Below, one piece after another: positions 1 through 11,431 of a stretch of DNA of 11,431 bases. The notes under the pieces were generated by a model. The model was not told where the DNA came from. It made no database searches and worked only from the letters and a program-made list of their open reading frames with translations. The DNA is from a virus. The translations under genes were made by a program, and so were the position numbers. The stretch is taken from the UHGV virus genome UHGV-1944538. The stretch is one strand, 5' to 3'. The number at the start of each line of letters is the position of its first letter. Positions within the stretch are counted from its first letter, which is position 1.

Positions 1-35
1 CTACGGAATAGAGATAACACGAGGAGTGGTTAGAA

Positions 36-68
36 ATGGCTAAAGTTCTGGTGCTTTTACATAGCTAA
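36..68 (+). pseudogene. wrbA: 5' stub of wrbA left at attL: native start codon and first 22 nt of wrbA fused to element DNA, reading MAKVLVLLHS-stop
   Basis: 36-57 atggctaaagttctggtgcttt equals the start of the wrbA ORF whose continuation (ttattattccatgtacgg...) is found at 11321 onward; after position 57 the sequence diverges and an in-frame TAA follows at 66-68. Confidence 0.7.
51..57. repeat. attL core GTGCTTT (shared between wrbA and element)
   Basis: Left junction matches native wrbA through position 57; identical 7-mer at the right junction. Confidence 0.6.
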
Positions 69-368
69 ACACGTACATTCAACTACCTGTTAAAAACAGG
101 ACAATATCAGGTGAATCTCTATGCAATTTAAAGGCATTTCCCCAAGTATCTAAGCAGTTTTACACAGATTCTATGCAGTATCGGTATAGTCCCTTTTTAT
201 CCTAACTTATTGAAATATATAGAGAATCTGTGAAGTCTCTTTTCAGGGTAAACTGTATCGTGTTAGTCGTCCCTCTCTCGACTCCTAGAAAAGTGCTATA
301 TACAGGACTATATGACGCTATTCATGCAGTTGGTCACATGGTGTAACTATCAAACCCTTAACGATTTC

Positions 369-476
369 CTACGTGAAAGTTAGGAGTTGATGGTTATAGT
401 TCCTTCGTAGTTCCTCTTAAAAAATCACTTACAGACATCTTAATCTCTATACAGATTTCACGTAGAACACGCTTAA
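369..476 (+). repeat. Diverged third copy of the inverted-repeat element: arms CTACGTGAAA (369-378) and TTTCACGTAG (456-465), followed by CACGCTTAA (468-476)
   Basis: Arms and 3' tail identical to the 70-bp repeats at 6514 and 8659, but the spacer between arms is 77 nt instead of 38. Confidence 0.5.
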
Positions 477-993
477 TGCGTAAAAGAGTCATTATGTTAA
501 AAACGCACTGTATACGTATCAGTACTGATTTATAAGGGTTTTGTTTATTTGAAGATAAGAGGCTATACAGCACCTTGAGAGCATGTCTTGTAAGTCATTG
601 ACATATAAGGTCACAGAAGTTTGTGTCTGTTACAGAGAAAACTGGACAGGACTTCACAGAGCTATAAAATGTTACAGCTATTGATAGGTGAAATCTTCTT
701 GATAGATGCTTTGAAGTGTGGTGAAGGTTTCTTGATGTGGAGTTAACAGATGCTATGAAGAAAGTCAATAGTTGGTTATAGATATTTTAACTGCTTTTGC
801 AAAGGGGGTGCTATATCGTGAATCTGGGGTACTTAACAGCCATCAATTGAGTGTAGATATTTTTTAAGATTATCGGTGAAGGGGAATGTAGAGGGAGTGC
901 TACGATTTTTATAAAAAAATTAGAAGATGAAAAATCACTGTATAAACTTTAATCAGACCTATCGACAAGTTTATGTCAGGTCTTTATTAACTA

Positions 994-1518
994 TCAGCTA
1001 AAATTCCTGTATCCATATTTACCATGCAATTCCAGTGATGCAGCATCATAGGCTTTTGCAGCTTCTTCTGCTGTATTAAACTGACCCAGATAATGAGATT
1101 TTCCATTACAGCGTATTGTAGCCCAGAACCCCTTGTTATCCACTCTTGGGTGTACTCCCTTGTAACCTGATTTTGTTTTCTTTCTGGGTATCATGTTTGC
1201 CTGATTCTGCTCTTTGGTAACCTCTCGAAGATTGCTAATAGCATTATTTAGCGGGTCACCATCTATATGGTCAATCCATAGTTTAGCTTGTTTACCATGA
1301 TATAGATAGAAAATAACCTGATGCACCTTAAGTATTCTGAACTTACCATTAATCCGACAACCAAAAGCCAGATATTGTCTTGGTTTAGGATTTACAAGTG
1401 AACCCTCGATTTTTACACCTTTTCTAAATAATGTTCCAGATTCAAAATCTGCTGTAATATTTTCATTGATGTATCTTATAACTTCTTCAGGCCATGCCTT
1501 GGTATACCTAGTCACCAT
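994..1518 (-). CDS. HNH-AP2 family homing endonuclease (N-terminal NUMOD4/HNH_3-like domain plus C-terminal AP2 DNA-binding domain)
   Basis: 174-aa ORF. HNH-type motif WIDHIDGDPLNNAISNLREVTKEQN; AP2-type C-terminus GYKGVHPRVDNKGFWATIRCNGKSHYLGQFNTAEEAAKAYDAASLELHGKYGYRNF. AAGGA about 7 nt upstream of ATG on the minus strand. Confidence 0.85.
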   Translation of the reverse strand: MVTRYTKAWPEEVIRYINENITADFESGTLFRKGVKIEGSLVNPKPRQYLAFGCRINGKFRILKVHQVIFYLYHGKQAKLWIDHIDGDPLNNAISNLREVTKEQNQANMIPRKKTKSGYKGVHPRVDNKGFWATIRCNGKSHYLGQFNTAEEAAKAYDAASLELHGKYGYRNFS

Positions 1519-1576
1519 AATATTCCTTATTTCAATTAACTTGTTGAGGTAATACTACCAAGAAACTTCATATCAT

Positions 1577-1604
1577 ATTTTAGATAATGATTGATATACA
1601 TCAA
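1577..1604 (-). promoter_or_regulatory. Candidate sigma70-type promoter for the HNH-AP2 gene (minus strand TTGATG-N16-TAAAAT)
   Basis: Reverse complement of 1599-1604 is TTGATG and of 1577-1582 is TAAAAT, 16-nt spacer, about 60 nt upstream of the start at 1518. Confidence 0.3.
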
Positions 1605-2369
1605 AAAACTATTAAGTTCTCGGAAGAAGACTATATAGATTAATGATGCTCTTATTGTAGGAGCATCTATTCCCAACAAGGGAACTACACAGAAACTAGA
1701 GAATATGCTCTGTAACACCTTCACAGTATCTATATCAGGTCAGATTCAGAGGTCTTGATAGAATCTTCAAAGGTACTTGACAGATAACTATGAAGTTGCT
1801 AGGAAGGGATGTTTAACGGGAGGAAAGATACGATATAACCCGAAGGGAGAGTATCATCTTAACAATTATTCTTAAGAGATACCTTGAAAAGACACTTAAC
1901 AGAACCACCAAGAAGAGAGGGAACGATAAGACCCAGAGGTAGTGACCTGTTAAACAGTTCGTTTCAAAGCTCTTAAGAGTCTGTTAAGTAGGGTCATGTG
2001 ACAATCTTACCATTTTGTCAATGCTTTTGTCTTTGACCTAAATCAATAAAATGTATCGTTTGATATGTTTTTAAACAAAATAGTTAAAAATCTTTTTAGA
2101 GGTGCGCTTCGCTTGTGTCACCAATATCATTCTTCCCTGTCTAAGAGGGAAGTTACAGGGCATTTCAAAGCCCTCAATAGGCAAACCGAGGAATACGGAA
2201 AACCGAGGGAAGAAAACTATTGTGATTACCTTGAACAAGGTCTGTAAAGGTCGTTTAAGAGGTCGGTTAAGAAAGGAGCTTCCCTCTCTGGGGTTATCGC
2301 TCTTCTCTCGATTAGTGGATTGATTAAGAAGACCTCTGAAGTTTCTCTGTGAAGGTGCTGAACAGCTAT

Positions 2370-2423
2370 TATATATGGCTAATTACAACTTATTGAAAAA
2401 TAAACATTTTTAGAAATTACTGT
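2370..2423 (+). repeat. 54-bp direct repeat, copy A (TATATATGG..ATTACAACTTATTGAAAAATAA..TTTTAGAAATTACTGT)
   Basis: Aligns without gaps to 2465-2518 at a constant 95-bp offset with about 5 mismatches. Confidence 0.7.
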
Positions 2424-2464
2424 TAAGGTTGCAGAGTTGTCTGTGAAGAGACTTGTCAGTTCTC

Positions 2465-2518
2465 TATATATGGGTGATTACAACTTATTGAAAAATAAGA
2501 ACTTTTAGAAATTACTGT
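2465..2518 (+). repeat. 54-bp direct repeat, copy B
   Basis: See copy A; both lie in the ORF-poor 1725-3111 region. Confidence 0.7.
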
Positions 2519-2827
2519 CAGAGAGGTGAATACTTGATAGATACAGCTTTCCGGTTCTGTCAAGCTATTTTTTAATAGATAGCACAAAGTGCTAAAGACA
2601 CCCCTATACCATCTCGTACAGGGGGTTTTGGAGGGATTAACGGGGGTCTGTATGGTCGTTATCCTTAAGGTCAAGCGTCCATGTACGACCGAACAGTCTA
2701 AAGACAACAAGCACCCTGACGAGGACGTAGCGAAGTAACAGACCTGCGAACAGACCCACACCTCCACCAGCCCACAAATCAGGTGACCCCAATTCCTGAG
2801 GGAGATTTACCATTAAATTTCCTTGTA

Positions 2828-2925
2828 AGACGCTCTCAATCGCATTCTGACACAAAAAAGTACCTGACCTTATAGTTGACCTGAAGAGGACGTTTAACTC
2901 GTTACAGAGCGATTGAAGAGGTCTG
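2828..2925 (+). repeat. Inverted-repeat-bounded unit I (98 bp): 5' block AGACGCTCTCAATCGCATTCT..CAAAAAA, variable middle, 3' block ..CTCGTTACAGAGCGATTGAAGAGGTCTG
   Basis: 5' and 3' blocks are conserved with unit II at 4468-4588; CTCAATCGC (2835-2843) is the reverse complement of GCGATTGAG-type sequence at 2909-2917, with an extended imperfect inverted repeat of about 16 bp. Confidence 0.7.
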
Positions 2926-3031
2926 CGTGCAATGCAATAACCATGTGACCAAATACATGGCCACGCCTTTATATTTTACTCTCCCCATAGGACCATTATA
3001 CCACAGATGTTAATAAAATGTTAAAAAATAC

Positions 3032-3060
3032 TTGACATTAGCCTTTGAAACTGCTAGTAT
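3032..3060 (+). promoter_or_regulatory. Candidate sigma70-type promoter TTGACA-N17-TAGTAT upstream of the 3112 operon
   Basis: TTGACA at 3032-3037, 17-nt spacer, TAGTAT at 3055-3060, followed by TGTATATATGAGTTAACAGA; about 50 nt upstream of ATG 3112. Confidence 0.45.
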
Positions 3061-3111
3061 TGTATATATGAGTTAACAGAATAATAACATCTTATGAGGG
3101 TCAGAATATGA

Positions 3112-3666
3112 ATGAGAGATGCAGAATTTAGAGCGATGCTTCAAGCATCAAGGGAACGTAACAGACACAACGGTTACAGCTACACAGACACCCCCACCAG
3201 CTACGAAGTCCCAGCCTTTACCAAATCCGAACGTAAAAACATTGAAGCGGTCATTCGTAGCATTACGCCACGAGACAGATATATGCCAACCAGAAAGAGC
3301 ACGAAGAATAGCTTGAAACCTTTCCTGATGAGCTTTGATTCTTACGAGCAATTACCATCAAAAATTGAAGATGTAATTATCGGTACTTGTCGCAGTCTTG
3401 GAAGGGATAATTATCACCGGAAAGTTTTCTATTTACTGCGAAGTCTTGATGAGATTAGTTCAGGCGCAATAACAAATTATCTTCAGCGACAAGCAACCAG
3501 ACTTAGCTACGAATTACCGTCTGATGGGTATTGCGCTAATTTAAGTACCATTTGCAGTAAAGTTATCGAGACAATCAATCATCATGTTGAGGTTGGTAAT
3601 ATCAACCTTACGACAAGTGAGCCAGACTTTGAATTTGACGTATACGCACAAGCAGAGGAATTTTAA
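3112..3666 (+). CDS. Hypothetical protein, 184 aa, acidic C-terminus; first gene of a four-gene coupled operon
   Basis: Long ORF downstream of the promoter-like site; GAGGG upstream of the start; stop 3664-3666 sits 1 nt before the next start codon. Confidence 0.7.
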   Translation: MRDAEFRAMLQASRERNRHNGYSYTDTPTSYEVPAFTKSERKNIEAVIRSITPRDRYMPTRKSTKNSLKPFLMSFDSYEQLPSKIEDVIIGTCRSLGRDNYHRKVFYLLRSLDEISSGAITNYLQRQATRLSYELPSDGYCANLSTICSKVIETINHHVEVGNINLTTSEPDFEFDVYAQAEEF

Positions 3667-3667
3667 A

Positions 3668-3955
3668 ATGAAAAACAAACACACTTTAACCCGTATTACA
3701 AAGACAGCCTTTGACGAACTTAACCGAATCAAAAACATTACAGGTCTGCCACACTCAGCAGTGATGAAGCTTGCAATTAACCGTGATATTAACGAACAGG
3801 ATTTGCTTAATAGTCGCTTAGAGGCTGCAAGACACCATATCAGGATTAAGCAAGATGACCTTGATAGTCTGAAATCTTTAAATGTTTTTGGACTGGATTT
3901 AGCAAGGTTACTAAGTATCAAAATTCACAAGTTAGCGGATAAATTGGGGGTTTAA
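3668..3955 (+). CDS. Hypothetical small protein, 95 aa (start placed at the ATG with an RBS, not at the track's upstream ATG 3584)
   Basis: GAGGA at 3655-3659, 8 nt before ATG 3668; the track start at 3584 lies inside the preceding gene. Confidence 0.65.
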   Translation: MKNKHTLTRITKTAFDELNRIKNITGLPHSAVMKLAINRDINEQDLLNSRLEAARHHIRIKQDDLDSLKSLNVFGLDLARLLSIKIHKLADKLGV

Positions 3956-4170
3956 TGCTATGCGTTACCTTTGAATATCACACGGATAAAATGATTCGCT
4001 ACATCTCCGACCTCCTGATTGAAGGAAACGGATTCGGTGACATCCACAACTCAAAAGATATTTTCATTAAAGCCATTGGCCCAAATGAAGTACTGAAAGC
4101 AGCAGTCAAGCCAGAATGGTTTGAGCGTCACAAGATTGAATTAGGTTATTGGGGTGAGGAGGTTTTATGA
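3955..4170 (+). CDS. Hypothetical small protein, 71 aa
   Basis: Start overlaps the upstream stop (TAATG at 3953-3957); GGGGG just upstream. Confidence 0.6.
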   Translation: MLCVTFEYHTDKMIRYISDLLIEGNGFGDIHNSKDIFIKAIGPNEVLKAAVKPEWFERHKIELGYWGEEVL

Positions 4171-4454
4171 AACCTTGGCATGAAGATGTTAGACGATATT
4201 TTACAGAACACCTTATCTATGATGAATCCAGTGATTCCCTGTGCTGGTCTGATGGAGAGTCAGTCACGATAAATACCGACGACTACGGCAACAAAACATT
4301 TAATATAGGCCGATATACTTTCTACGTGAAATATGTTGTCTGGTTCCTTTATCATGGCTATCAATCCAATAAGCAAATTATCCATCTAAATGGTAACAGA
4401 GCCGATACCAGACCAAAAAATCTTATGCAAGTCCGAGACTTTAAGAGAAATTAG
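4167..4454 (+). CDS. Truncated HNH_3-like protein, 95 aa, paralogous to the N-terminal half of the HNH-AP2 endonuclease but lacking the AP2 domain
   Basis: ATGA overlap with the upstream stop; GAGGAGG RBS. WHEDVRRYFTEHLIYDESSDSLCWS and YVVWFLYHGYQSNKQIIHLNGNRADTRPKNL parallel WPEEVIRYINENITADFESGTLFRK and HQVIFYLYHGKQAKLWIDHIDGDPLNNAISNL in the 994-1518 product. Confidence 0.65.
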   Translation: MKPWHEDVRRYFTEHLIYDESSDSLCWSDGESVTINTDDYGNKTFNIGRYTFYVKYVVWFLYHGYQSNKQIIHLNGNRADTRPKNLMQVRDFKRN

Positions 4455-4467
4455 AAAAACAGCTTCT

Positions 4468-4588
4468 CAGACGCTCTCAATCGCATTCTAACGCAAAAAA
4501 CTATCTTATTTTAGGGTGGGTAATACCACTGTACAGACTACCCCTGAAAAAGACTGTTTAGCTCGTTACAGAGCGATTGAGGAGGTCT
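4468..4588 (+). repeat. Inverted-repeat-bounded unit II (121 bp), homolog of unit I with a longer variable middle
   Basis: 5' block 4468-4500 and 3' block 4551-4588 nearly identical to unit I; it fills the gap between the 4454 stop and the RBS of the 4611 gene. Confidence 0.7.
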
Positions 4589-4610
4589 GGTAAAAAGGAG
4601 ATTTTAAGAA

Positions 4611-4940
4611 ATGAGAGAATTAAACTTCCCGCTACAGATTTTCGTTGATAGCGACACTGCTATGATGGTGCAAAGCTTCACTGATGCAGGTATTAGCATT
4701 GACTTTGACAGGCTGTTAAAGCTAATGGCTGAGAACTCAGAAGCAATTGAAGATTTTATTCAGGAAATTGAAACTGGTGACCCACGTTTTATGTTTCCCG
4801 TTACCGACTCAAACATGAAGCGCCTTATTATTGAGGAAACTAACCGATACAGCGTTAGCCCTGAAAAATATCTCAAGGCGGCTATAGTAATTTTGTACGC
4901 TGACAATGTTTTGGTTACGGATTCGAAGGTGGTGCATTAA
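4611..4940 (+). CDS. Hypothetical protein, 109 aa, acidic
   Basis: AAGGAG at 4595-4600 upstream of ATG 4611; clean ORF. Confidence 0.65.
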   Translation: MRELNFPLQIFVDSDTAMMVQSFTDAGISIDFDRLLKLMAENSEAIEDFIQEIETGDPRFMFPVTDSNMKRLIIEETNRYSVSPEKYLKAAIVILYADNVLVTDSKVVH

Positions 4941-5017
4941 TGGGCTTAATAATTGCTTGGACAGCTTTGGGTTTATTTGTTGGTTGCTGGGTAGGTAACA
5001 CAGTAAATAAGAATTGA
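4940..5017 (+). CDS. Candidate 25-aa single-helix hydrophobic peptide (MGLIIAWTALGLFVGCWVGNTVNKN), translationally coupled to the upstream gene
   Basis: ATG overlaps the upstream TAA; AAGGTGG at 4926-4932, 7 nt before the ATG. Not in the ORF track because of its size. Confidence 0.35.
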   Translation: MGLIIAWTALGLFVGCWVGNTVNKN

Positions 5018-5041
5018 TGTTACCAATCTGTTAAAAAGCTG

Positions 5042-5070
5042 TTGACAAATAACCTTGAGCATGACATAAT
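5042..5070 (+). promoter_or_regulatory. Candidate sigma70-type promoter TTGACA-N17-CATAAT
   Basis: TTGACA 5042-5047, 17-nt spacer, CATAAT 5065-5070, followed by TGTATATATAGG as at the 3032 promoter. Confidence 0.45.
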
Positions 5071-5076
5071 TGTATA

Positions 5077-5268
5077 TATAGGAAGAGCAATTTTTCCTAA
5101 AATCATATTTTCAATAATCCGATGGATGGATATTCTGAGTTGGAAAGGTGCAATGCTTTTCGTCATGGCCTTTCAGTTTAGTCTGAGAGGCTATCTCAAA
5201 AAGTCTTTGTTCATTCATTATTGAACCCTTACAGCTTTGCCCTAATCATGAGTTAGGGCGTTTTCTTT
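5077..5268 (+). ncRNA. Candidate small RNA of about 190 nt between promoter 5042-5070 and the intrinsic terminator at 5239-5268; could instead encode a small hydrophobic peptide
   Basis: Promoter and terminator bracket a region with no RBS-preceded ORF; the track ORF 5042-5224 begins at the -35 hexamer itself. An internal 23-codon frame (5152-5223, MLFVMAFQFSLRGYLKKSLFIHY) lacks a good RBS. Confidence 0.3.
5239..5268 (+). terminator. Rho-independent terminator: stem GCCCTAA/TTAGGGC, 7-nt loop, then GTTTTCTTT
   Basis: Perfect 7-bp stem at 5239-5245 and 5253-5259 followed by a T-rich tract. Confidence 0.5.
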
Positions 5269-5337
5269 AAGAGTTTTAAACAGAGCTTTTAAAGAAAGTT
5301 TTTCCTGAAACTTCGTTAACGTTATAAGCAAACCTCC

Positions 5338-5370
5338 AAAGCCCTTCACAGAAACGTTTAGGGCTTTTCT
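5338..5370 (+). terminator. Second, weaker terminator-like hairpin: AAGCCCT ... AGGGCTT then TTCTT
   Basis: 7-bp stem with a 14-nt loop and a T-rich tail; shares the GCCCT..TTAGGGC..TTT pattern with the 5239 hairpin. Confidence 0.3.
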
Positions 5371-5468
5371 TAATAGAGCATCTTTAATAAATCGTTAAGT
5401 CATCTTCTAAGTGTATTGGCGTTGAAGGTGCTCTATTAAGAAATAAACCACACTTAGAGGAAGTTATA

Positions 5469-6179
5469 ATGACAAACGATTTATATATTAACGGTAAAAA
5501 GGTTGATAGCTTCGGTGACTGGTCGCCACAGACTGAACATCCAGCTATCGCTATTCAGCGTCAAGAGCATGACAAGCGCATTGAGCTTGAGCAAGAGCTA
5601 AAGATGTCACCAAAAACAACCATCTTTGTGTCTCCTGAGCCTCAAGAGATGCCTGATATTTGCAAGAGTGAAGCATTATTTAATCTTGAGCGTGAATATT
5701 ACCCACTGCTAAAAGAACAGCGCCTTAGATTAGATGACGCTTACGACAATGTGAAGAACTTTGAAGAGACTGAAAAGCCAACTGATTTTGATATTGAAGT
5801 GGAAATTAGACAAAACCCATTCGTATATTACTCAGTTGAGGATAATGATGGTTTTGGTACAGCAAGAGAGAATATCTCAAAAGTTCTTCAAAACATCCCT
5901 GAAGGATTCCGTTTAATTGATGTCAGACCAGCTTCACGCGGTACAGGTTCATATATTTTACTGTCTGATAAAACAGATGAAGAGATTTGTCAGTTAGCTG
6001 AAAAGAATCTACTTGAGCGTCATAGCAAAAAATTAAACAGATTTAAGCAAGAGCTTGCTAACCAGCTTAGAGCTATGAAGCAACTAATCAGTGACTATGA
6101 AACGCAGAAGAAGGTTGCTATGCAAGCCGATATTGAGCAGCTTACGAAGATTTCTCAGAAATATAGCAAGGCACTTTAA
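5469..6179 (+). CDS. Hypothetical protein, 236 aa, acidic with a predicted coiled-coil C-terminal third
   Basis: GAGGAAG 6 nt upstream of the ATG; long clean ORF; the C-terminus has a heptad-like charged pattern. Confidence 0.7.
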   Translation: MTNDLYINGKKVDSFGDWSPQTEHPAIAIQRQEHDKRIELEQELKMSPKTTIFVSPEPQEMPDICKSEALFNLEREYYPLLKEQRLRLDDAYDNVKNFEETEKPTDFDIEVEIRQNPFVYYSVEDNDGFGTARENISKVLQNIPEGFRLIDVRPASRGTGSYILLSDKTDEEICQLAEKNLLERHSKKLNRFKQELANQLRAMKQLISDYETQKKVAMQADIEQLTKISQKYSKAL

Positions 6180-6201
6180 CTATGAATTAAAGAGGTGATT
6201 A

Positions 6202-6411
6202 ATGTTTGAAGAACGTTTAGAGACTATTCGGTCTGTTTGTGAAAACTTAAAGTTACAAAATAAGCCAACCTTAAGAATTAAAAACAAACGTCAAGTTATC
6301 ACCTCACACAAACCAAAAACACGCAAGATTCCAAAATGGTGTATTGACCGTATCCCTTCTGATGCTCAAATCATAGGTGAAACGGAATTACATTATCTTG
6401 TCAGGCATTAA
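6202..6411 (+). CDS. Hypothetical small basic protein, 69 aa
   Basis: AAGAGGTGA RBS 5 nt upstream; Lys/Arg-rich; followed by a terminator-like hairpin. Confidence 0.6.
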   Translation: MFEERLETIRSVCENLKLQNKPTLRIKNKRQVITSHKPKTRKIPKWCIDRIPSDAQIIGETELHYLVRH

Positions 6412-6463
6412 AAAAAAAGAATTGGTTGGGTGTATGAGATAGGTTCTATCGAATCTATAACAC

Positions 6464-6506
6464 GGGGAGAGATTATCGATATTATTCGGTAGTTTCTCCC
6501 TTTTTT
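6464..6506 (+). terminator. Terminator-like hairpin (GGGAGA ... TCTCCC) followed by TTTTTT
   Basis: 6-bp G/C-rich stem at 6465-6470 and 6495-6500 with a long loop containing ATCGAT, then T6 at 6501-6506, immediately before repeat copy 1. Confidence 0.45.
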
Positions 6507-6513
6507 GTATGTG

Positions 6514-6583
6514 TGCTACGTGAAATCTTCTGAACAGATATACCCACCAAAAATTATTTTTTACGTAGCTCACGCTTAACAGA
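6514..6583 (+). repeat. 70-bp direct repeat, copy 1, containing an 11-bp inverted repeat (GCTACGTGAAA ... TTTTACGTAGC, one mismatch) and a CACGCTTAACAGA tail; lies immediately upstream of the 6599 gene
   Basis: 67 of 70 identity with 8659-8728. Confidence 0.8.
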
Positions 6584-6598
6584 GGTGAAATATGAACA

Positions 6599-8647
6599 AT
6601 GGCACAATTTAAAGTTGATAGTTTTATCGTTGAGCTAGGCTTCAGCGAGAACGTTATTAAGGGCTTGCAAAGAGTTGAAAAGGCAGCTTTGCAGTCAGCA
6701 CAAAGAATTGAACGTAATTTGAATAGAGCGTTTAAGGTCGATACCAAGCAATTTGACAGCAATCTGACAAGTTCTTTGAAGTCAATGGAAGGAAAAATTA
6801 ATAAGACCTTTGACCGTCTGGAAGCTAGAGCAAAAAATACTAAAGCTTTCCAGTTTACCACCAGATTTAATGACACTGTTAATCCTCCAAAACAACCGAG
6901 ACAGCCACGAATTAGCGGAAACAGAGCAATCACAGCAGCTTATTCAGCTAATATGACCAAGCTGAAAGGTCTTAACCCAATTGTCGAGAAATACATTAAG
7001 AGCCAGTTTTACGCATTAAGTAGTAAAGCTGGTCAGATGGATAACACCAAGTTTAATGAAGCCCTTGCTAAACTAAATTCAAGTGTAAGAGAAGCAATCA
7101 CTAAAGCCAGAGGTCATACATCCACCAGCATTAACGGTGACAGAGCAGCTAATAGTCTTGATAGTTTGAGTTCAGCAGCAGTTAAAACAGCAGGTGCATT
7201 TATCAGCTTTCAAGCTGTACTATCCGCTTATCAGCGAGTAATGGAAGTTGGCCTTCAACGTGCATCATCGGAAAGAAGTATTGATTTCGTATTTGATAAA
7301 GATGCAGGCCAAGTAAAAGAGTTCACAAAGTCATTAGCTCAAACAACGGGTTTAGATATCGCTGAACTGCAATCACAGTTTGCTGGTTTTGGTGCTTCAG
7401 CTAAAGAGTCTATGGGTATTCAAGGTTCTGAAGAACTTTTTAAAAGTATGATTGGCTATTCTCGTTTAATGGGTCGAAGTGAAGAAGAGATTAAGCGAGC
7501 ACTGACAGCATTATCACAGATGGCTGGTAAGGGTCAGATTATGGCTGAAGAGCTTAAGGGGCAATTAGCTGAAGCTGTTCCTGGTATGGTTCAGGTATTC
7601 GCTAAAGCAACCGGAAAGACTGAACAGGAATTATTTGATGCCATGAAGAAGGGGGCTTTAAAATCTGCCGATACTCTTCAGAAGGTCACTCAGGAACTGA
7701 ATAGACAAATCACCGCTAAAGGTGGCTGGAAAGCTATTTCAGAAAGTACACAGGCACAGCTAGGGAACCTGAAAAACTCTTGGAATACCACGCTTGATAG
7801 TATCTTCAGAGGTTCTGAAAATGGTCTGCAAGATTTCACACGAAGCCTAACAACGCTTTTAAACGCTCTTGGTGGAAGTGGTAAAACATTAGGTGAAAGT
7901 TTTGGTAGCTTGATGAGCGATATGTCACATGGTGTCGATAACCTGACTGATATTAGTTACAGGGTAAGGGCGTTCTTTGACGAGGTGACATTGGCTTATC
8001 GTGGTTTAACCGATGAACAAAAGAAAGTTGTTGATGCTTTAGGTTCTGGCTTGATTAATAGTTTAAAAGTCTTGGCTGGTGTTATTGCTGTGAATAAAGT
8101 TGTTGGTGTAACCAGAAGTATTTACGGGCTTATGACTGCTATCACAAGATTAGGTCAGGTCGCTGATACTACAGTGGATAACGTGAATAGAAAGAACGGG
8201 AAACCATCAAGGTTTAATCTTGGGAATATGCTATTAGCTGGTAGTGCTATCTATGCAGGTTATGAGAGATTAGCTTCTACGCCTGAACGAATGGAAGCAC
8301 AAGCTAAATTACCAGAGCTGGCTAAAGAGTCTGGACTTAAGCCAGTATTTACTATGGACGATGTGAAAGGTTGGTTTAATAGTGCAGCTATGAATCTTGC
8401 TAACTTCCAGCATCCAGAATTAATCACCATGAGACAAGATGCGGCATTAACGAATACGGATATCCAAAGCCTGAGAGATGAAATTAGTGCTTTGAGCAAA
8501 CGTATTCAGGAGCCTGTGAAAGTTTCACTTGGTGGTGAAGTTGCCATTAAACCAGATGAAACCAGCTTTATGACCTTTAGCAGTAATATCTACGACCAAT
8601 ACGCAGAAGCTACGCTATTAAGTTCATCATTCCCAGAAGATGATTGA
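6599..8647 (+). CDS. 682-aa protein with a tape-measure-type domain (central GKGQIMAEELKGQLAEAVPGMVQVFAKATGKTEQELFDAMKKGALKSADTLQKVTQEL segment) and a coiled-coil-rich N-terminus
   Basis: Long ORF; the central segment resembles, from memory, the conserved domain of siphovirus/lambdoid tape measure proteins. GAGGTG lies 11 nt upstream of the ATG. Domain assignment not verified by search. Confidence 0.75.
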   Translation: MAQFKVDSFIVELGFSENVIKGLQRVEKAALQSAQRIERNLNRAFKVDTKQFDSNLTSSLKSMEGKINKTFDRLEARAKNTKAFQFTTRFNDTVNPPKQPRQPRISGNRAITAAYSANMTKLKGLNPIVEKYIKSQFYALSSKAGQMDNTKFNEALAKLNSSVREAITKARGHTSTSINGDRAANSLDSLSSAAVKTAGAFISFQAVLSAYQRVMEVGLQRASSERSIDFVFDKDAGQVKEFTKSLAQTTGLDIAELQSQFAGFGASAKESMGIQGSEELFKSMIGYSRLMGRSEEEIKRALTALSQMAGKGQIMAEELKGQLAEAVPGMVQVFAKATGKTEQELFDAMKKGALKSADTLQKVTQELNRQITAKGGWKAISESTQAQLGNLKNSWNTTLDSIFRGSENGLQDFTRSLTTLLNALGGSGKTLGESFGSLMSDMSHGVDNLTDISYRVRAFFDEVTLAYRGLTDEQKKVVDALGSGLINSLKVLAGVIAVNKVVGVTRSIYGLMTAITRLGQVADTTVDNVNRKNGKPSRFNLGNMLLAGSAIYAGYERLASTPERMEAQAKLPELAKESGLKPVFTMDDVKGWFNSAAMNLANFQHPELITMRQDAALTNTDIQSLRDEISALSKRIQEPVKVSLGGEVAIKPDETSFMTFSSNIYDQYAEATLLSSSFPEDD

Positions 8648-8658
8648 TAATAGTCGAA

Positions 8659-8728
8659 TGCTACGTGAAATCTCCTGAACGGATATACCCACCAAAAATT
8701 ATTTTTCACGTAGCTCACGCTTAACAGA
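8659..8728 (+). repeat. 70-bp direct repeat, copy 2 (perfect 11-bp inverted arms GCTACGTGAAA / TTTCACGTAGC), immediately after the 6599-8647 gene and upstream of the 8805 gene
   Basis: Near-identical to 6514-6583; the two copies bracket the tape-measure-like gene. Confidence 0.8.
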
Positions 8729-8804
8729 TAAAACACTTATATATCAAAGGCTTGGTTAAAAATGATTAAAATACACTAAGCCTTTGAAATCAAAGGAGAA
8801 TTTA

Positions 8805-9578
8805 ATGATTTACACTAATCAGCTTCGTTACACTGGCAAAGATGGCGTTTACTTCCACTTAAGAGATAATGTAGATGCCTTCTTAACTTTATCAGCAACT
8901 GAAAATATGGAATTTGACAGCCCTATGCAGGTAACTACACAGAACATGCAATCAGGGCAAACCGTCACAGATAATGTGCAAAGAGCACCCAGAACAATCA
9001 CTATTAGCGGTGTCGTTGTAGTTGGCTATGAAGGAAGCTTATTATTAACTCGTCAGGGTCAATTAGTAGAAAACTTCATTGACACTCTTGAAAGCTGGAG
9101 AGACCAGAAGCAAATTATTTCGGTCATCTGTAAAGACGGTATCAAAATTGATGATTCCATTATTACGAGTTTTAAAGCCTCTAAAGATGTTGGTATTTCA
9201 AATGGTCTAAGAGTCCAGCTAACTTTTCAGGAAATTAACTTTAAAGCTATTGTGGGTCAGACTGATATTTCATCTGCGACTGGAAAAGCCGCGACTACTA
9301 ATGATGGTGGTGCTACCAGTAAAAAGAATGCGGGTAACGTGACTACTGAACGCAATAACGCACCTATGTTGCTGTGTCAGGAACTGTACAGCTACTCAGC
9401 ATCTGAGCTATCTGATGAAGCGTTAAAAGCCCGTAGTAATTGCTCTAAAAATGTCACGGTGAAAGATGGTGTAAGCACCTTCTCAGATGCCGCTAATGCG
9501 CAAGCTTCAAAAGTGCTTAAGTCGGGTAATGCTTTACGGAAGTTTAGTGTGAATCCGAATAAGAAGGGCACTTATTGA
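8805..9578 (+). CDS. Hypothetical protein, 257 aa, with a Ser/Thr/Asn/Gly-rich linker ([30 protein letters not shown]); positionally a possible tail-module partner of the upstream gene
   Basis: AGGAG at 8794-8798, 6 nt before ATG 8805; the track's earlier start at 8784 is a TTG without an RBS. No confident domain assignment. Confidence 0.65.
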
Positions 9579-9594
9579 TTGGTAACAATACCAA
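9577..9594. other. Hairpin (ATTGGTA-ACAA-TACCAAT) in the 19-bp gap between convergent genes; possible bidirectional terminator
   Basis: Perfect 7-bp inverted repeat between the stop codons at 9576-9578 (plus) and 9598-9600 (minus); A/T-rich, so weak. Confidence 0.25.
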
Positions 9595-9597
9595 TTC

Positions 9598-11241
9598 CTA
9601 AGCGTCCACCTCTTCCATATCACCAGCAGGATAAATCCTTGTTACTGGTTCACCAAAAATAAGCATATCATCTAGTGACTGCATCTCATCGGTTGCTTCT
9701 TCAAGCGTTAAGGTGTGGTCATCTTTACCATCAAGAGGGAAACCACGAATCATATTTCCATTGTGAAGATATATATCAACCAGCTTTTCATTACCAGAAA
9801 CAACAATCTCTTTCACCAGACGCTTAATGATAATCTGGGCTTCAGTTCTCCCCTCTACAGACTCCATATCAAGACCGCTTAAATCCAAGCTTGATACAGA
9901 TTTTACCCTCGCCTTTTCTCGTGATAACTGAACTATCAGTTCATCTTTTTCTTCCTGCTTAATCCGTAGTGCTTCTTGAATCTGAGTGATGTTAGGAAGC
10001 TGTATCAGCGTCTCAGTGAGTTTTTCCAGTTCACTATCAACGGTGTTTAGTCTGCGTTGTAGCTCATCTAATTTAGCTGTGTCAGTAGCTTCATCGTGTA
10101 GCTGTGACAGTTTGCTGAACAGACGACTACAAAGCTGTGTATCAAGTAACTTTCTGGACACTGTACCGTAGCTACAACGGGACTCCTTATTACCATTGCA
10201 ACGGTAAGTACCTTGATAAACGGGTTTACGTATCCCTGTAGGAGTCATTACAAGCCCACACTTACAACGGATAAGCCCCTTCAGTATGTTCACATATAGC
10301 CAGTGTTCACCGCTGGATGTTTTCCCCTTCCCTGTTTCCTCTAACAGTTGCTGTACAGCGTAAAACTTAGAGTCTGTGACAATCTGAGGATAGAACCCTT
10401 CAATTTCTTCACGTAACACTGTTTTACGGTCTTCTGTAGAAATCTTAGCGGGAAGGTAACCTAATACACTTCGTGAAGTCAGGATGTGTTTAACGCTTAA
10501 TGCTGACCAGTTGCCATCCGGTTTCTTAGTCTTGGATATTCTGACCTTACGCTGATTAATGGTCGGGTAACCTTGTTCGTTTAGCCATTTGCAGATAGCA
10601 AACATCGACATACCAGAAAGACGCTTGTCATAGATGATATTCACCAGTGACGCTTTATCTTCATCAACGATGTAGTGTGAACCGTCTTCTGATAGCTCTA
10701 ACCATCCGGGGGCTTGCTTACCCATAGGCTTCTTAAGTTCTCTTGCAAGCTGTGTTTTATGGTTCCAGACCTGAGCTATACGCTTTTGCTTAACAAGAGA
10801 TTCTTGGTGTGCTCGCTCAGCTATGATGATGTGCTTAATCAACTTCACAGGGTCTGTTAATGCTGATTTGTCGTAGAGTTCACCATCTCCCAGAGTCAGT
10901 ATAGAGACCCCTTTCCTCAGTATCTGCCTGACATCATCTATAGCTGTGTCGATATCAGCCCTACTGAAGCGGTCAAAGTTCTCTACAACAATCAAGGAAC
11001 CTTCTGGAATAGCCTCAGACATAACATTTTCAAACATACGTCTGAAGTCAGAACCTTGATTCTTATGTTGCTGGTGAAAACCAGATTTACCCTTATCAAC
11101 ATATCTGTGAGCAGGAAGAAGGTAATAATCGTTTTTGTGCTTAGAGTAGAAAGCATCAATGAGGTTTGTTTGCCGTCTTAAGGAGTCTCCTGAGTCTTGC
11201 TCTTTAGTACTCCACCTGATGTATGTCACTAGCAGCTTCAT
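9598..11241 (-). CDS. int: Large serine recombinase (serine integrase) of the element
   Basis: 547 aa. N-terminal resolvase-type motif YIRWSTKEQ with a candidate nucleophile Ser; Cys-rich zinc-ribbon-like segment [11 protein letters not shown]...[14 protein letters not shown]; C-terminal coiled coil. Located next to attR and read inward. Confidence 0.9.
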
Positions 11242-11292
11242 ATCTTCGGACTATGCTTATCTAAGTGGTTCATTGAACAGGAGAACAATGAT

Positions 11293-11431
11293 ATGAGTGT
11301 TAAGGCAAGAATACTAGTGCTTTATTATTCCATGTACGGACATATTGAAACGATGGCACGCGCAGTTGCTGAGGGTGCAAGCAAAGTCGATGGCGCAGAA
11401 GTTGTCGTTAAGCGTGTACCGGAAACCATGC
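11293..11431 (+). CDS. wrbA: wrbA, NAD(P)H:quinone oxidoreductase, 5' part with element-supplied start ([46 protein letters not shown]); partial, runs off the window
   Basis: From 11317 the sequence and translation match the WrbA N-terminus as I remember it (native [43 protein letters not shown]); AGGAG at 11279-11283 upstream of the new ATG. Confidence 0.85.
11317..11323. repeat. attR core GTGCTTT
   Basis: Identical to 51-57; wrbA identity resumes exactly here. Confidence 0.6.

Follow-up and report, generated by a model that had tools for sequence, protein, structure and literature searches.

A putative terminator-gated RNA leader, conserved in structure, in a satellite-like island of Escherichia coli

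Introduction

Positions 5018-5468 of the UHGV virus genome UHGV-1944538, a DNA stretch of 11,431 nt that is called the window below, contain a promoter, a structured RNA of about 190 nt and two terminator-like hairpins, followed by a two-gene unit. The region is a part of an approximately 11 kb island at the ymdF/wrbA junction of the E. coli chromosome; the island occupies about 80-11250 of the window (1-11431). The system closest to this region in the way of working is PR'-6S-tR' of phage lambda. The lambda 6S RNA, 194 nt in length, is the default terminated product of the PR' leader, and Q antitermination is needed at tR'. As in lambda, here a near-consensus sigma-70 promoter of the constitutive type is followed by a terminated RNA of about 190 nt, the downstream virion-related genes have no promoter-like site of their own, and there is more than one terminator to pass. 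Unlike the lambda late leader, this one has conserved hairpins (denoted E and F) and a long hairpin before the ribosome-binding site (RBS), and it precedes a two-gene unit with its own terminator, not a whole late operon. As no Q homologue was found among the small island proteins (Pfam, PHROG), the leader is not a member of the lambda-type late leaders.

The nut sites (boxA/boxB with N) and the HK022 put sites are similar in that promoter-proximal RNA signals lie ahead of several terminators, here T1, T2 and the stem-loop at 6464-6501. As in nut and put, there is a small hairpin with a fixed pentaloop (GCAAU in hairpin E) after a linear motif (AUUCUG), and an adjacent stem-loop, F. Moreover, as with nutL and nutR, the 9-mer GTGCAATGC is found also in the other rightward regulatory region of the island. 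Unlike nut, the leader has no sequence similarity to boxA or boxB, and a nut/put-like function is what we infer here. Another comparison is provided by IsrK of the Salmonella Gifsy-1 prophage, where short and long RNAs originate from a single promoter. In the same way, a short terminated RNA and a longer mRNA made by read-through, possibly translationally locked, would both come from one promoter here, though, unlike in IsrK, no sequence evidence points to the short RNA opening the lock in trans.

As a satellite RNA, the closest one is SviR, an intergenic, open reading frame (ORF)-free small RNA (sRNA) of about 210 nt with an intrinsic terminator, from the Vibrio cholerae satellite PLE (bioRxiv 10.1101/2022.04.08.487710). 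PLE parasitises a virulent myovirus; SviR is induced by phage infection and flanked by inverted repeats, its promoter, functional regions and terminator being the most conserved parts, and its seeds and targets have been mapped (bioRxiv 10.1101/2022.04.08.487710). At the sequence level, our region likewise forms a discrete unit of about 200 nt that has a promoter and an intrinsic terminator to itself and lacks a conserved ORF. The differences are that the promoter here looks constitutive, that no convincing target was found, and that the RNA runs on into a coding unit; no sequence relation of the leader to SviR was detected.

Barth, Dunham and Seed described putative satellites of E. coli in which a tape-measure gene and a baseplate gene are accompanied by few other tail genes, with a serine recombinase in a subset of them (PMC10055350). 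They are linked to myoviruses of about 146 kb (Inny, Muut, Mt1B1_P17) and have capsid and decoration genes and RepA_N, and no regulatory RNA was described for them (PMC10055350). The present island shares the E. coli host, the tape-measure-plus-baseplate theme and the serine recombinase, while its phage-like genes are related to Felixounavirus, and capsid, decoration and RepA_N genes were not detected. Little is known about how satellites of virulent phages silence, and then switch on, their hijacking genes. A constitutive-type promoter combined with tandem terminators and a hairpin before the RBS makes a compact and testable regulatory module.

Results and discussion

Conservation of the promoter and the structured RNA

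Homologues of the region were identified in 477 of 5426 complete E. coli genomes (about 9%), with 74-98% identity, and also in E. albertii, Citrobacter and IMG/VR contigs; the gap of about 530 bp holding the leader has no annotation by the Prokaryotic Genome Annotation Pipeline (PGAP). Comparison of these sequences indicates that the region is a real, conserved and previously unannotated regulatory RNA leader. With somewhat better than even confidence, we interpret it as a terminator-gated leader of about 390 nt controlling the two-gene unit (236 and 69 amino acids, aa) of a satellite-like island of about 11 kb. The features discussed below are listed in Table 1.

The original prediction placed a near-consensus promoter at 5042-5070, and this assignment is confirmed: the site has the joint best score of the window, and its -35 box is TTGACA in all 36 homologous loci. 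The -10 box is CATAAT in 32 of them, the other four having GATGAT, GAAGAT, TAATAT and CATAGT. The spacer of the promoter and the initial region with TGTATATAT are also conserved among homologues. Transcription would start at about 5077-5078. The number of sites found by consensus scanning is at the chance level (31 promoter-like sites, compared to 29.9 in shuffled sequences, and 7 terminator-like sites, compared to 7.1), and therefore the weight of evidence rests on conservation. The scan revealed no further promoter-like site in 5071-5468 on either strand.

The predicted 192-nt RNA (5077-5268) folds with -57.9 kcal/mol (z = -4.28). Its 5'-terminal stem-loop is formed in all 14 sequence variants, with 6-8 bp, and RNAalifold shows double changes at three of six pairs; this is probably a hairpin that stabilises the RNA. 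Hairpin E has no second copy in the window even when 3 mismatches are allowed, and it is essentially fixed, as the only change among 28 distinct sequences (33 matches) is one G-U in place of A-U. Of the 33 leaders, 17 were gathered by whole-region BLAST and not by way of the motif. Two further leaders, L068 and L071, were reached through the downstream protein; in them the hairpin reads GGUAAGU-GCAAU-GCUUGCU, with all seven pairs retained, two of these by double-sided changes, and with the loop and its two closing pairs unchanged.

Stem F folds in all 16 variants with 11-13 bp. In a model-guided alignment, 96.4% of the cells are paired and five of 12 pairs are doubly changed, the covariation score being reached by none of 500 shuffles, while slid controls are 38-56% paired with at most one double change. 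The frequent G-U pairs in this stem assign the structure to the plus-strand RNA. Between F and T1, the mostly unpaired tract has the motifs AAAAGU, UUCAUUC and UUGAAYCC conserved in 32 leaders; the most divergent leader, L067, has a related UUCAUUUUCAUUGAAAACC, and the motifs are missing in L068 and L071. The long-range helix of the minimum-energy fold, joining the 5' spacer with UUCAUUCAUU, was rejected, because the 5' spacer and the 3' alleles reassort freely.

These comparisons strongly support the RNA from the promoter to T1, about 190 nt, as a conserved structured non-coding RNA. The suggestion of a candidate sRNA of this length thus holds with regard to structure, conservation and the lack of coding, as judged by covariation, but the RNA appears as the leader of the downstream unit and not as a free-standing sRNA gene. 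Rfam covariance models gave no matches in the whole window at E <= 1, tRNA and tmRNA scans found none, and blastn of the leader against 50,697 phage records gave no match; the leader represents an RNA family absent from Rfam.

Terminators and RNA structure downstream of them

Both hairpins of the original prediction, the clean terminator at 5239-5268 and the similar second hairpin at 5338-5370, are present with conserved stems and slightly adjusted borders (Table 1). T1 occurs in both orientations among homologues, the loop being TCATGAG or CTCATGA and the stem being retained. In T2 the stem is constant, while insertions enlarge the loop from about 14 to about 45 nt; the 14-nt loop is the sole reason why the terminator scanner does not see T2. 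Among 32 leaders, both T1 and T2 are found in 21, a single alternative or fused terminator in seven, and a hairpin with a displaced U-run in four. The spacer module between T1 and T2 is near-invariant where present and missing from about one third of the leaders; in L035, a change in the spacer improves the pairing of its 9-bp hairpin.

As a side observation, comparison of 5239-5259 with loci L002, L003, L010 and L012 shows the inverted T1 with a reverse-complemented loop and the same stem, the pattern expected of a template-switch inversion.

RNA structure is under selection beyond T2 as well. Hairpin I is found in three alleles that are unrelated in sequence, and the folds of all of these have -30 to -42 kcal/mol. 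In the mixed alignment, 98.2% of the positions are paired and 10 of 20 pairs are doubly changed (not matched by any of 500 shuffles), compared to 39-52% paired in slid controls, and the many G-U pairs again indicate the plus-strand RNA. The stem conserved as structure is near-perfect and 25-30 bp long, as would suit an RNase III-processed 5' untranslated region, and its geometry resembles that of RNase III substrates. Such selection beyond T2 implies that the read-through RNA exists and matters.

Moreover, the apical part of hairpin I contains a pyrimidine stretch complementary to the Shine-Dalgarno (SD) region of the 236-aa gene. The anti-SD partner shifts together with the SD flank in alleles a/b and c: in allele a, CUUCUAAGUGU is complementary to ACACUUAGAGGAAG, and the corresponding partners are UCUCUUCUAAG and CUUAGAAGAGGA in allele b, and UUCACCUCU and AGAGGUGAA in allele c. 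In most leaders the duplex is better than in dinucleotide shuffles (0-22 of 100 shuffles reach it). We regard the anti-SD role of the apex as tentative. The scenario offered as a refutation of the original prediction, namely that the region is simply the 5' untranslated region of the operon starting at 5469, read through both hairpins, is therefore at least partly true: the operon has no promoter-like site of its own, hairpin I covaries past T2, and a candidate anti-SD faces the SD.

Table 1. Features of the leader region and of the adjoining genes (positions in the window)
Feature	Position	Strand	Sequence and details	Basis
Hydrophobic peptide gene, 25 aa	4940-5017	+	MGLIIAWTALGLFVGCWVGNTVNKN; closes the upstream operon	ATG in overlap with the 109-aa gene stop
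Upstream promoter block	5018-5041	+	TGTTA/TGTTG three times with 11-bp phasing, and an A-tract (TGTTACCAATCTGTTAAAAAGCTG)	Hardly any variation in alignment A1
Sigma-70-type promoter	5042-5070	+	TTGACA (5042-5047)-17-CATAAT (5065-5070), extended -10 TG at 5062-5063	11/12 match
5'-terminal stem-loop	5079-5099	+	UAGGAAGA-GCAAU-UUUUCCUA, from about +2	Folding of variants
Hairpin E	5143-5161	+	GAAAGGU-GCAAU-GCUUUUC; conserved AUUCUG motif just 5'	Conservation
Stem-loop F	5165-5194	+	AUGGCCUUUCAG / CUGAGAGGCUAU, 12-13 bp	Covariation
Mostly unpaired A-rich, then U-rich tract	5195-5237	+	CUCAAAAAGU ... UUCAUUCAUUAUUGAACCC	Conserved motifs
Intrinsic terminator T1	5238-5268	+	UGCCCUAA-UCAUG-UUAGGGCG followed by UUUUCUUU; stem 5238-5260, then GTTTTCTTT in DNA	-11.7 kcal/mol
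T1-T2 spacer module	5269-5337	+	9-bp hairpin, CUUUAAGAG / CUUUUAAAG	Near-invariance
Terminator-like hairpin T2	5338-5371	+	AAAGCCCT (5338-5345) / AGGGCTTT (5360-5367), then TTTTCTT; as RNA, AAAGCCCU paired with AGGGCUUU, then UUUUCUU	-12.5 kcal/mol
Hairpin I	5366-5443	+	Near-perfect stem of 25-30 bp (5366-5387 / 5422-5443); 5' arm starts in the T2 U-tract	Inverted repeat I5, 22 nt at 91%
Candidate anti-SD	5400-5413	+	CAUCUUCUAAGUGU, pyrimidine stretch in the apical part of hairpin I	Complementarity to 5450-5471
SD region and AUG of the 236-aa gene	5450-5471	+	ACACUUAGAGGAAG; complementary to 5400-5413	Inverted repeat I19
Putative gated unit	5469-6179, 6202-6411	+	236-aa coiled-coil-like protein; 69-aa protein	ORFs
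Strong intrinsic terminator	6464-6510	+	After the 69-aa gene, before the tape-measure gene; stem-loop 6464-6501	16-bp stem, then TTTTTTG

Depth of conservation

The leader and the downstream protein are linked, as searches with the protein, in either allele, and with an 18-mer of hairpin E lead to one and the same set of 13 IMG/VR contigs. Relatives with 54%, 37% and 28% protein identity share the layout: a gene of about 105 aa, the 25-aa peptide gene and a promoter preceded by TGTTA repeats, then a leader of 430-460 nt and genes of about 240 and about 65 aa, with the tape-measure gene next where the contig extends that far (L067 and L068). In L067, hairpins E and F are unrecognisable, while the promoter is retained as TTGACA-17-CATAGT, and there are two terminator-like hairpins called by the scanner and a third one (GCACC...GGTGC followed by seven Ts), read by eye. 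As promoter and terminators persist there without E and F, the terminator gate is the deepest conserved trait, and E and F are a lineage-level addition.

Proposed mechanism

In the mechanism that we propose for the terminator-gated leader, the host sigma-70 RNA polymerase would initiate at about 5077, and three elements would form in the nascent RNA: the hairpin at its 5' end, hairpin E with its fixed sequence, and the long stem F. The majority of transcripts would end at T1, giving an RNA of about 190 nt, or at T2, giving one of about 294 nt, so that the default output would be stable short structured RNAs and little mRNA. The RNA that reads through would fold hairpin I, of 25-30 bp, just before the RBS; this hairpin may be an RNase III-type processing site and/or display the anti-SD, and would constitute a second, post-transcriptional lock. 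Infection by the helper phage may then increase read-through via an island- or phage-encoded factor acting on the polymerase or on the E/F RNA. The efficiency of termination, cleavage by RNase III, and antitermination together with its trigger are parts of the scheme that we infer. If read-through is triggered by a Felixounavirus, the leader would be the helper sensor of the island, and the second regulatory RNA in satellite-phage conflict after SviR.

Several observations weigh against this interpretation. The U-run is displaced in four of the 32 leaders, and hence the strength of gating varies. Folds of the nascent RNA show no conserved alternative (antiterminator) partner for the 5' arm of T1, and a riboswitch-like antiterminator was rejected on this ground. 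No antiterminator protein was identified among the small island proteins (Pfam, PHROG). If the short RNA had its own function in trans, E and F would be equally expected to be conserved ahead of the terminators. Finally, the anti-SD duplex of allele b surpasses the shuffles only moderately, and the minimum-energy fold leaves the SD free, so that hairpin I may act mainly as an RNase III-type site.

Since a bare terminator gate needs neither E nor F, their conservation ahead of the terminators must reflect another role. The candidates are a nut/put-like site for an antitermination factor, a domain of a trans-acting sRNA, or RNA stability. A speculative version of the first, to which we give rather little credence, is a helper-sensing switch: an early factor of the helper or the island would bind the GCAAU hairpin, or the polymerase carrying it, and cause run-through of T1, T2 and beyond. 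The switch would operate in a family of E. coli satellites, not described before, that exploit virulent phages of Felixounavirus.

Two side observations touch upon hairpin E. The 9-mer GTGCAATGC, the core of the hairpin, has a second copy in the window at 2927-2935 (0.03 copies expected per window), just 3' of a duplicated block and 5' of the hairpin CCATGT...ACATGG; this copy is kept, about 2.2 kb 5' of E, in all loci long enough to include it (L001, L028, L034, L039, L040). The pair is compatible with nutL/nutR-like RNA sites or with a shared DNA operator. Besides, the rightward operon begins with the gene of a 184-aa protein whose N-terminus (3112-3180) is basic and conserved, M-x-D-x-EFRAMLQASRERNKHN, and loosely recalls the arginine-rich motif of lambda N; as a candidate RNA-binding factor the protein is only a lead.

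Alternative explanations

The alternative that survives best is a free-standing trans-acting sRNA similar to SviR, in which the RNA of about 190 nt would pair with helper, island or host mRNAs via the loop of E or the unpaired UUCAUUCAUU tract; for an RNA acting in trans, the tract at 5195-5237 would supply the seed. We consider this explanation doubtful, though it is compatible with the terminator-gated leader if the short and the long RNA have a dual function. It fits the strong promoter and the terminator of the RNA's own, the protective 5' hairpin, the lack of a conserved ORF, and the selection on E and F, which a pure terminator gate would not require; SviR itself, an intergenic satellite sRNA of about 210 nt ended by a terminator, sets a precedent (bioRxiv 10.1101/2022.04.08.487710).

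The loop and the 3' arm of E also match the Felixounavirus phage garuso exactly over 14 nt (GTGCAATGCTTTTC at 8301), with a chance expectation, by our own estimate, of about 0.005 for the 20-nt E region. The phage gene lies on the opposite strand, and its mRNA is therefore complementary to E. However, the 14-nt site is in ordinary coding sequence, is not extended, and has two mismatches in Mooglevirus relatives, and the covariance model gave no match in the phage. Complementarity to the island is at the chance level (one 12-mer, compared to about 0.5 expected by our own estimate). What further speaks against a free-standing sRNA is the lack of a separate promoter-like site for the downstream gene, the selection on RNA structure past the terminators, and the state of L067, which has lost E and F but kept a terminator-rich leader.

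The site in garuso (L047, 8301-8314) belongs to the small early gene garuso_17, a homologue of FelixO1p174, and is conserved in the Felixounavirus genomes checked, save for one edge mismatch in ASO1B. Several matches of 13-15 nt between the leader and garuso exceed the expectation from mononucleotide shuffles, most of them in AT-rich low-complexity sequence; the single one that falls in hairpin E shows no particular conservation. RNAduplex of the leader with whole phage genes was uninformative.

RNA immunity of the P4 CI or P1 c4 type, where a small RNA processed from the leader pairs with repeated sites in the same transcript and causes premature termination, would suit the satellite setting and a constitutive-type promoter with premature termination in a long structured leader, but it is very improbable: the leader lacks mutually complementary repeats like seqA/seqB/seqC beyond local hairpins, the controlled genes are not a replication operon, and there is no Rfam match.

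The remaining alternative is a type I toxin-antitoxin or small-toxin locus, with the ORF from ATG 5153 as the toxin, controlled by RNA structure or antisense RNA. In the window this ORF encodes a partly hydrophobic peptide of 23 aa; a 60-aa TTG ORF starts within the -35 box. The original prediction, while seeing a resemblance to type I toxins, found no convincing protein gene between the promoter and the terminators and no RBS for the only ORF. The former statement is upheld: in 33 homologues the ORF has 5, 8, 9, 10, 11, 12, 22, 23, 33, 34, 42, 46 or 58 aa, and its sequence diverges after MLF, with no conservation after residue 5. The latter needs correction in part, since AAGGTG lies 2-4 nt 5' of the ATG, but both the SD and the AUG are buried in hairpin E. 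The substitutions in the leader track base pairing rather than codons, the minus strand of 5018-5468 has no promoter-like site and thus offers no antisense partner, and the truly conserved small hydrophobic peptide is that of the upstream gene at 4940-5017, whose mRNA has no complementarity to the leader. As the internal ORF is not conserved, the toxin explanation fails and is scarcely credible. Leader-peptide attenuation was also rejected, because the position of the ORF stop is not conserved.

The upstream peptide gene and the promoter block

The overlapping membrane peptide of 25 aa with a good RBS, noticed upstream in the original prediction, is borne out by the homologues. The ORF at 4940-5017 is intact in all 35 loci with a readable flank, has 21 or 25 codons and is hydrophobic throughout; in every case an SD is present upstream, and the start is coupled to the stop of the preceding gene. 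Relative to the window sequence, 135 codon differences are synonymous and 119 non-synonymous, synonymous change being enriched. Even L067, the most divergent relative, has a hydrophobic ORF of 25 aa at the same place (MIVQLTVVVTCIVLGFWLGGLMIKR). The comparison thus indicates a real conserved gene for a small membrane peptide, and its product may be a small membrane effector.

The block directly upstream of the promoter could be an UP-like element or an operator. In the form TGTTA-N6-TGTTAAAAA-N3-TTGACA it is found also ahead of the other rightward promoter of the island (3019-3060), and it is absent from phage garuso. The two rightward promoters (3019-3070 and 5029-5080) also share TGTATATAT 3' of the -10 box. 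In addition, a regulatory block of about 100 bp is duplicated, at 2822-2925 and 4463-4589, ahead of the 184-aa gene region and of the 109-aa gene.

The island and the two-gene unit

The island is present in strain ES5 with 91.6% identity; strains MS 196-1 and O145 RM9154 carry it too. It encodes a large serine recombinase of 547 aa (9598-11241, minus strand), and a tape-measure gene (6599-8647) is followed by one for a baseplate protein, Dit-like (8784-9578). In parts, these last two genes are 93-95% identical to Felixounavirus phages at the nucleotide level. The island also has HNH/AP2 nucleases, and several of its small ORFs belong to no family (Pfam, PHROG). As no capsid or terminase genes were found, the island resembles a phage satellite, probably one of virulent, Felix O1-like phages. 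Our literature search found no paper that ties satellites to Felixounavirus or describes such an island.

The 236-aa protein belongs to no Pfam, PHROG or NCBIfam family, and a PDB profile search was empty; the PGAP label "transposase" is unsupported by any of these four. Its AlphaFold2 model (mean predicted local distance difference test score 71) consists mainly of long helices and has no match in BFVD at E <= 0.001. Clustering at 50% identity gives 20 clusters of this small family among 1.8 billion representatives, and the protein exists in two deep alleles, distant homologues with 23% identity. Among the five small upstream proteins and the two proteins of the gated unit, no Pfam or PHROG family was found except for the HNH fold of the 95-aa protein.

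No convincing ORF is seen in 1724-3000 (about 1.3 kb), a region that has, among other repeats, a 54-nt repeat in direct orientation (2370-2423 and 2465-2518; 91% identical); it may be a replication origin/iteron region or decayed genes. Moreover, a 70-nt direct repeat (96% identical) is situated at 6514-6583 and 8659-8728, directly before the tape-measure and Dit-like genes. Its core CTACGTGAAA has six copies in the island (also at 369, 456 and 4322) and none in phage garuso, and the repeat may be a regulator or promoter element that marks phage-derived cassettes.

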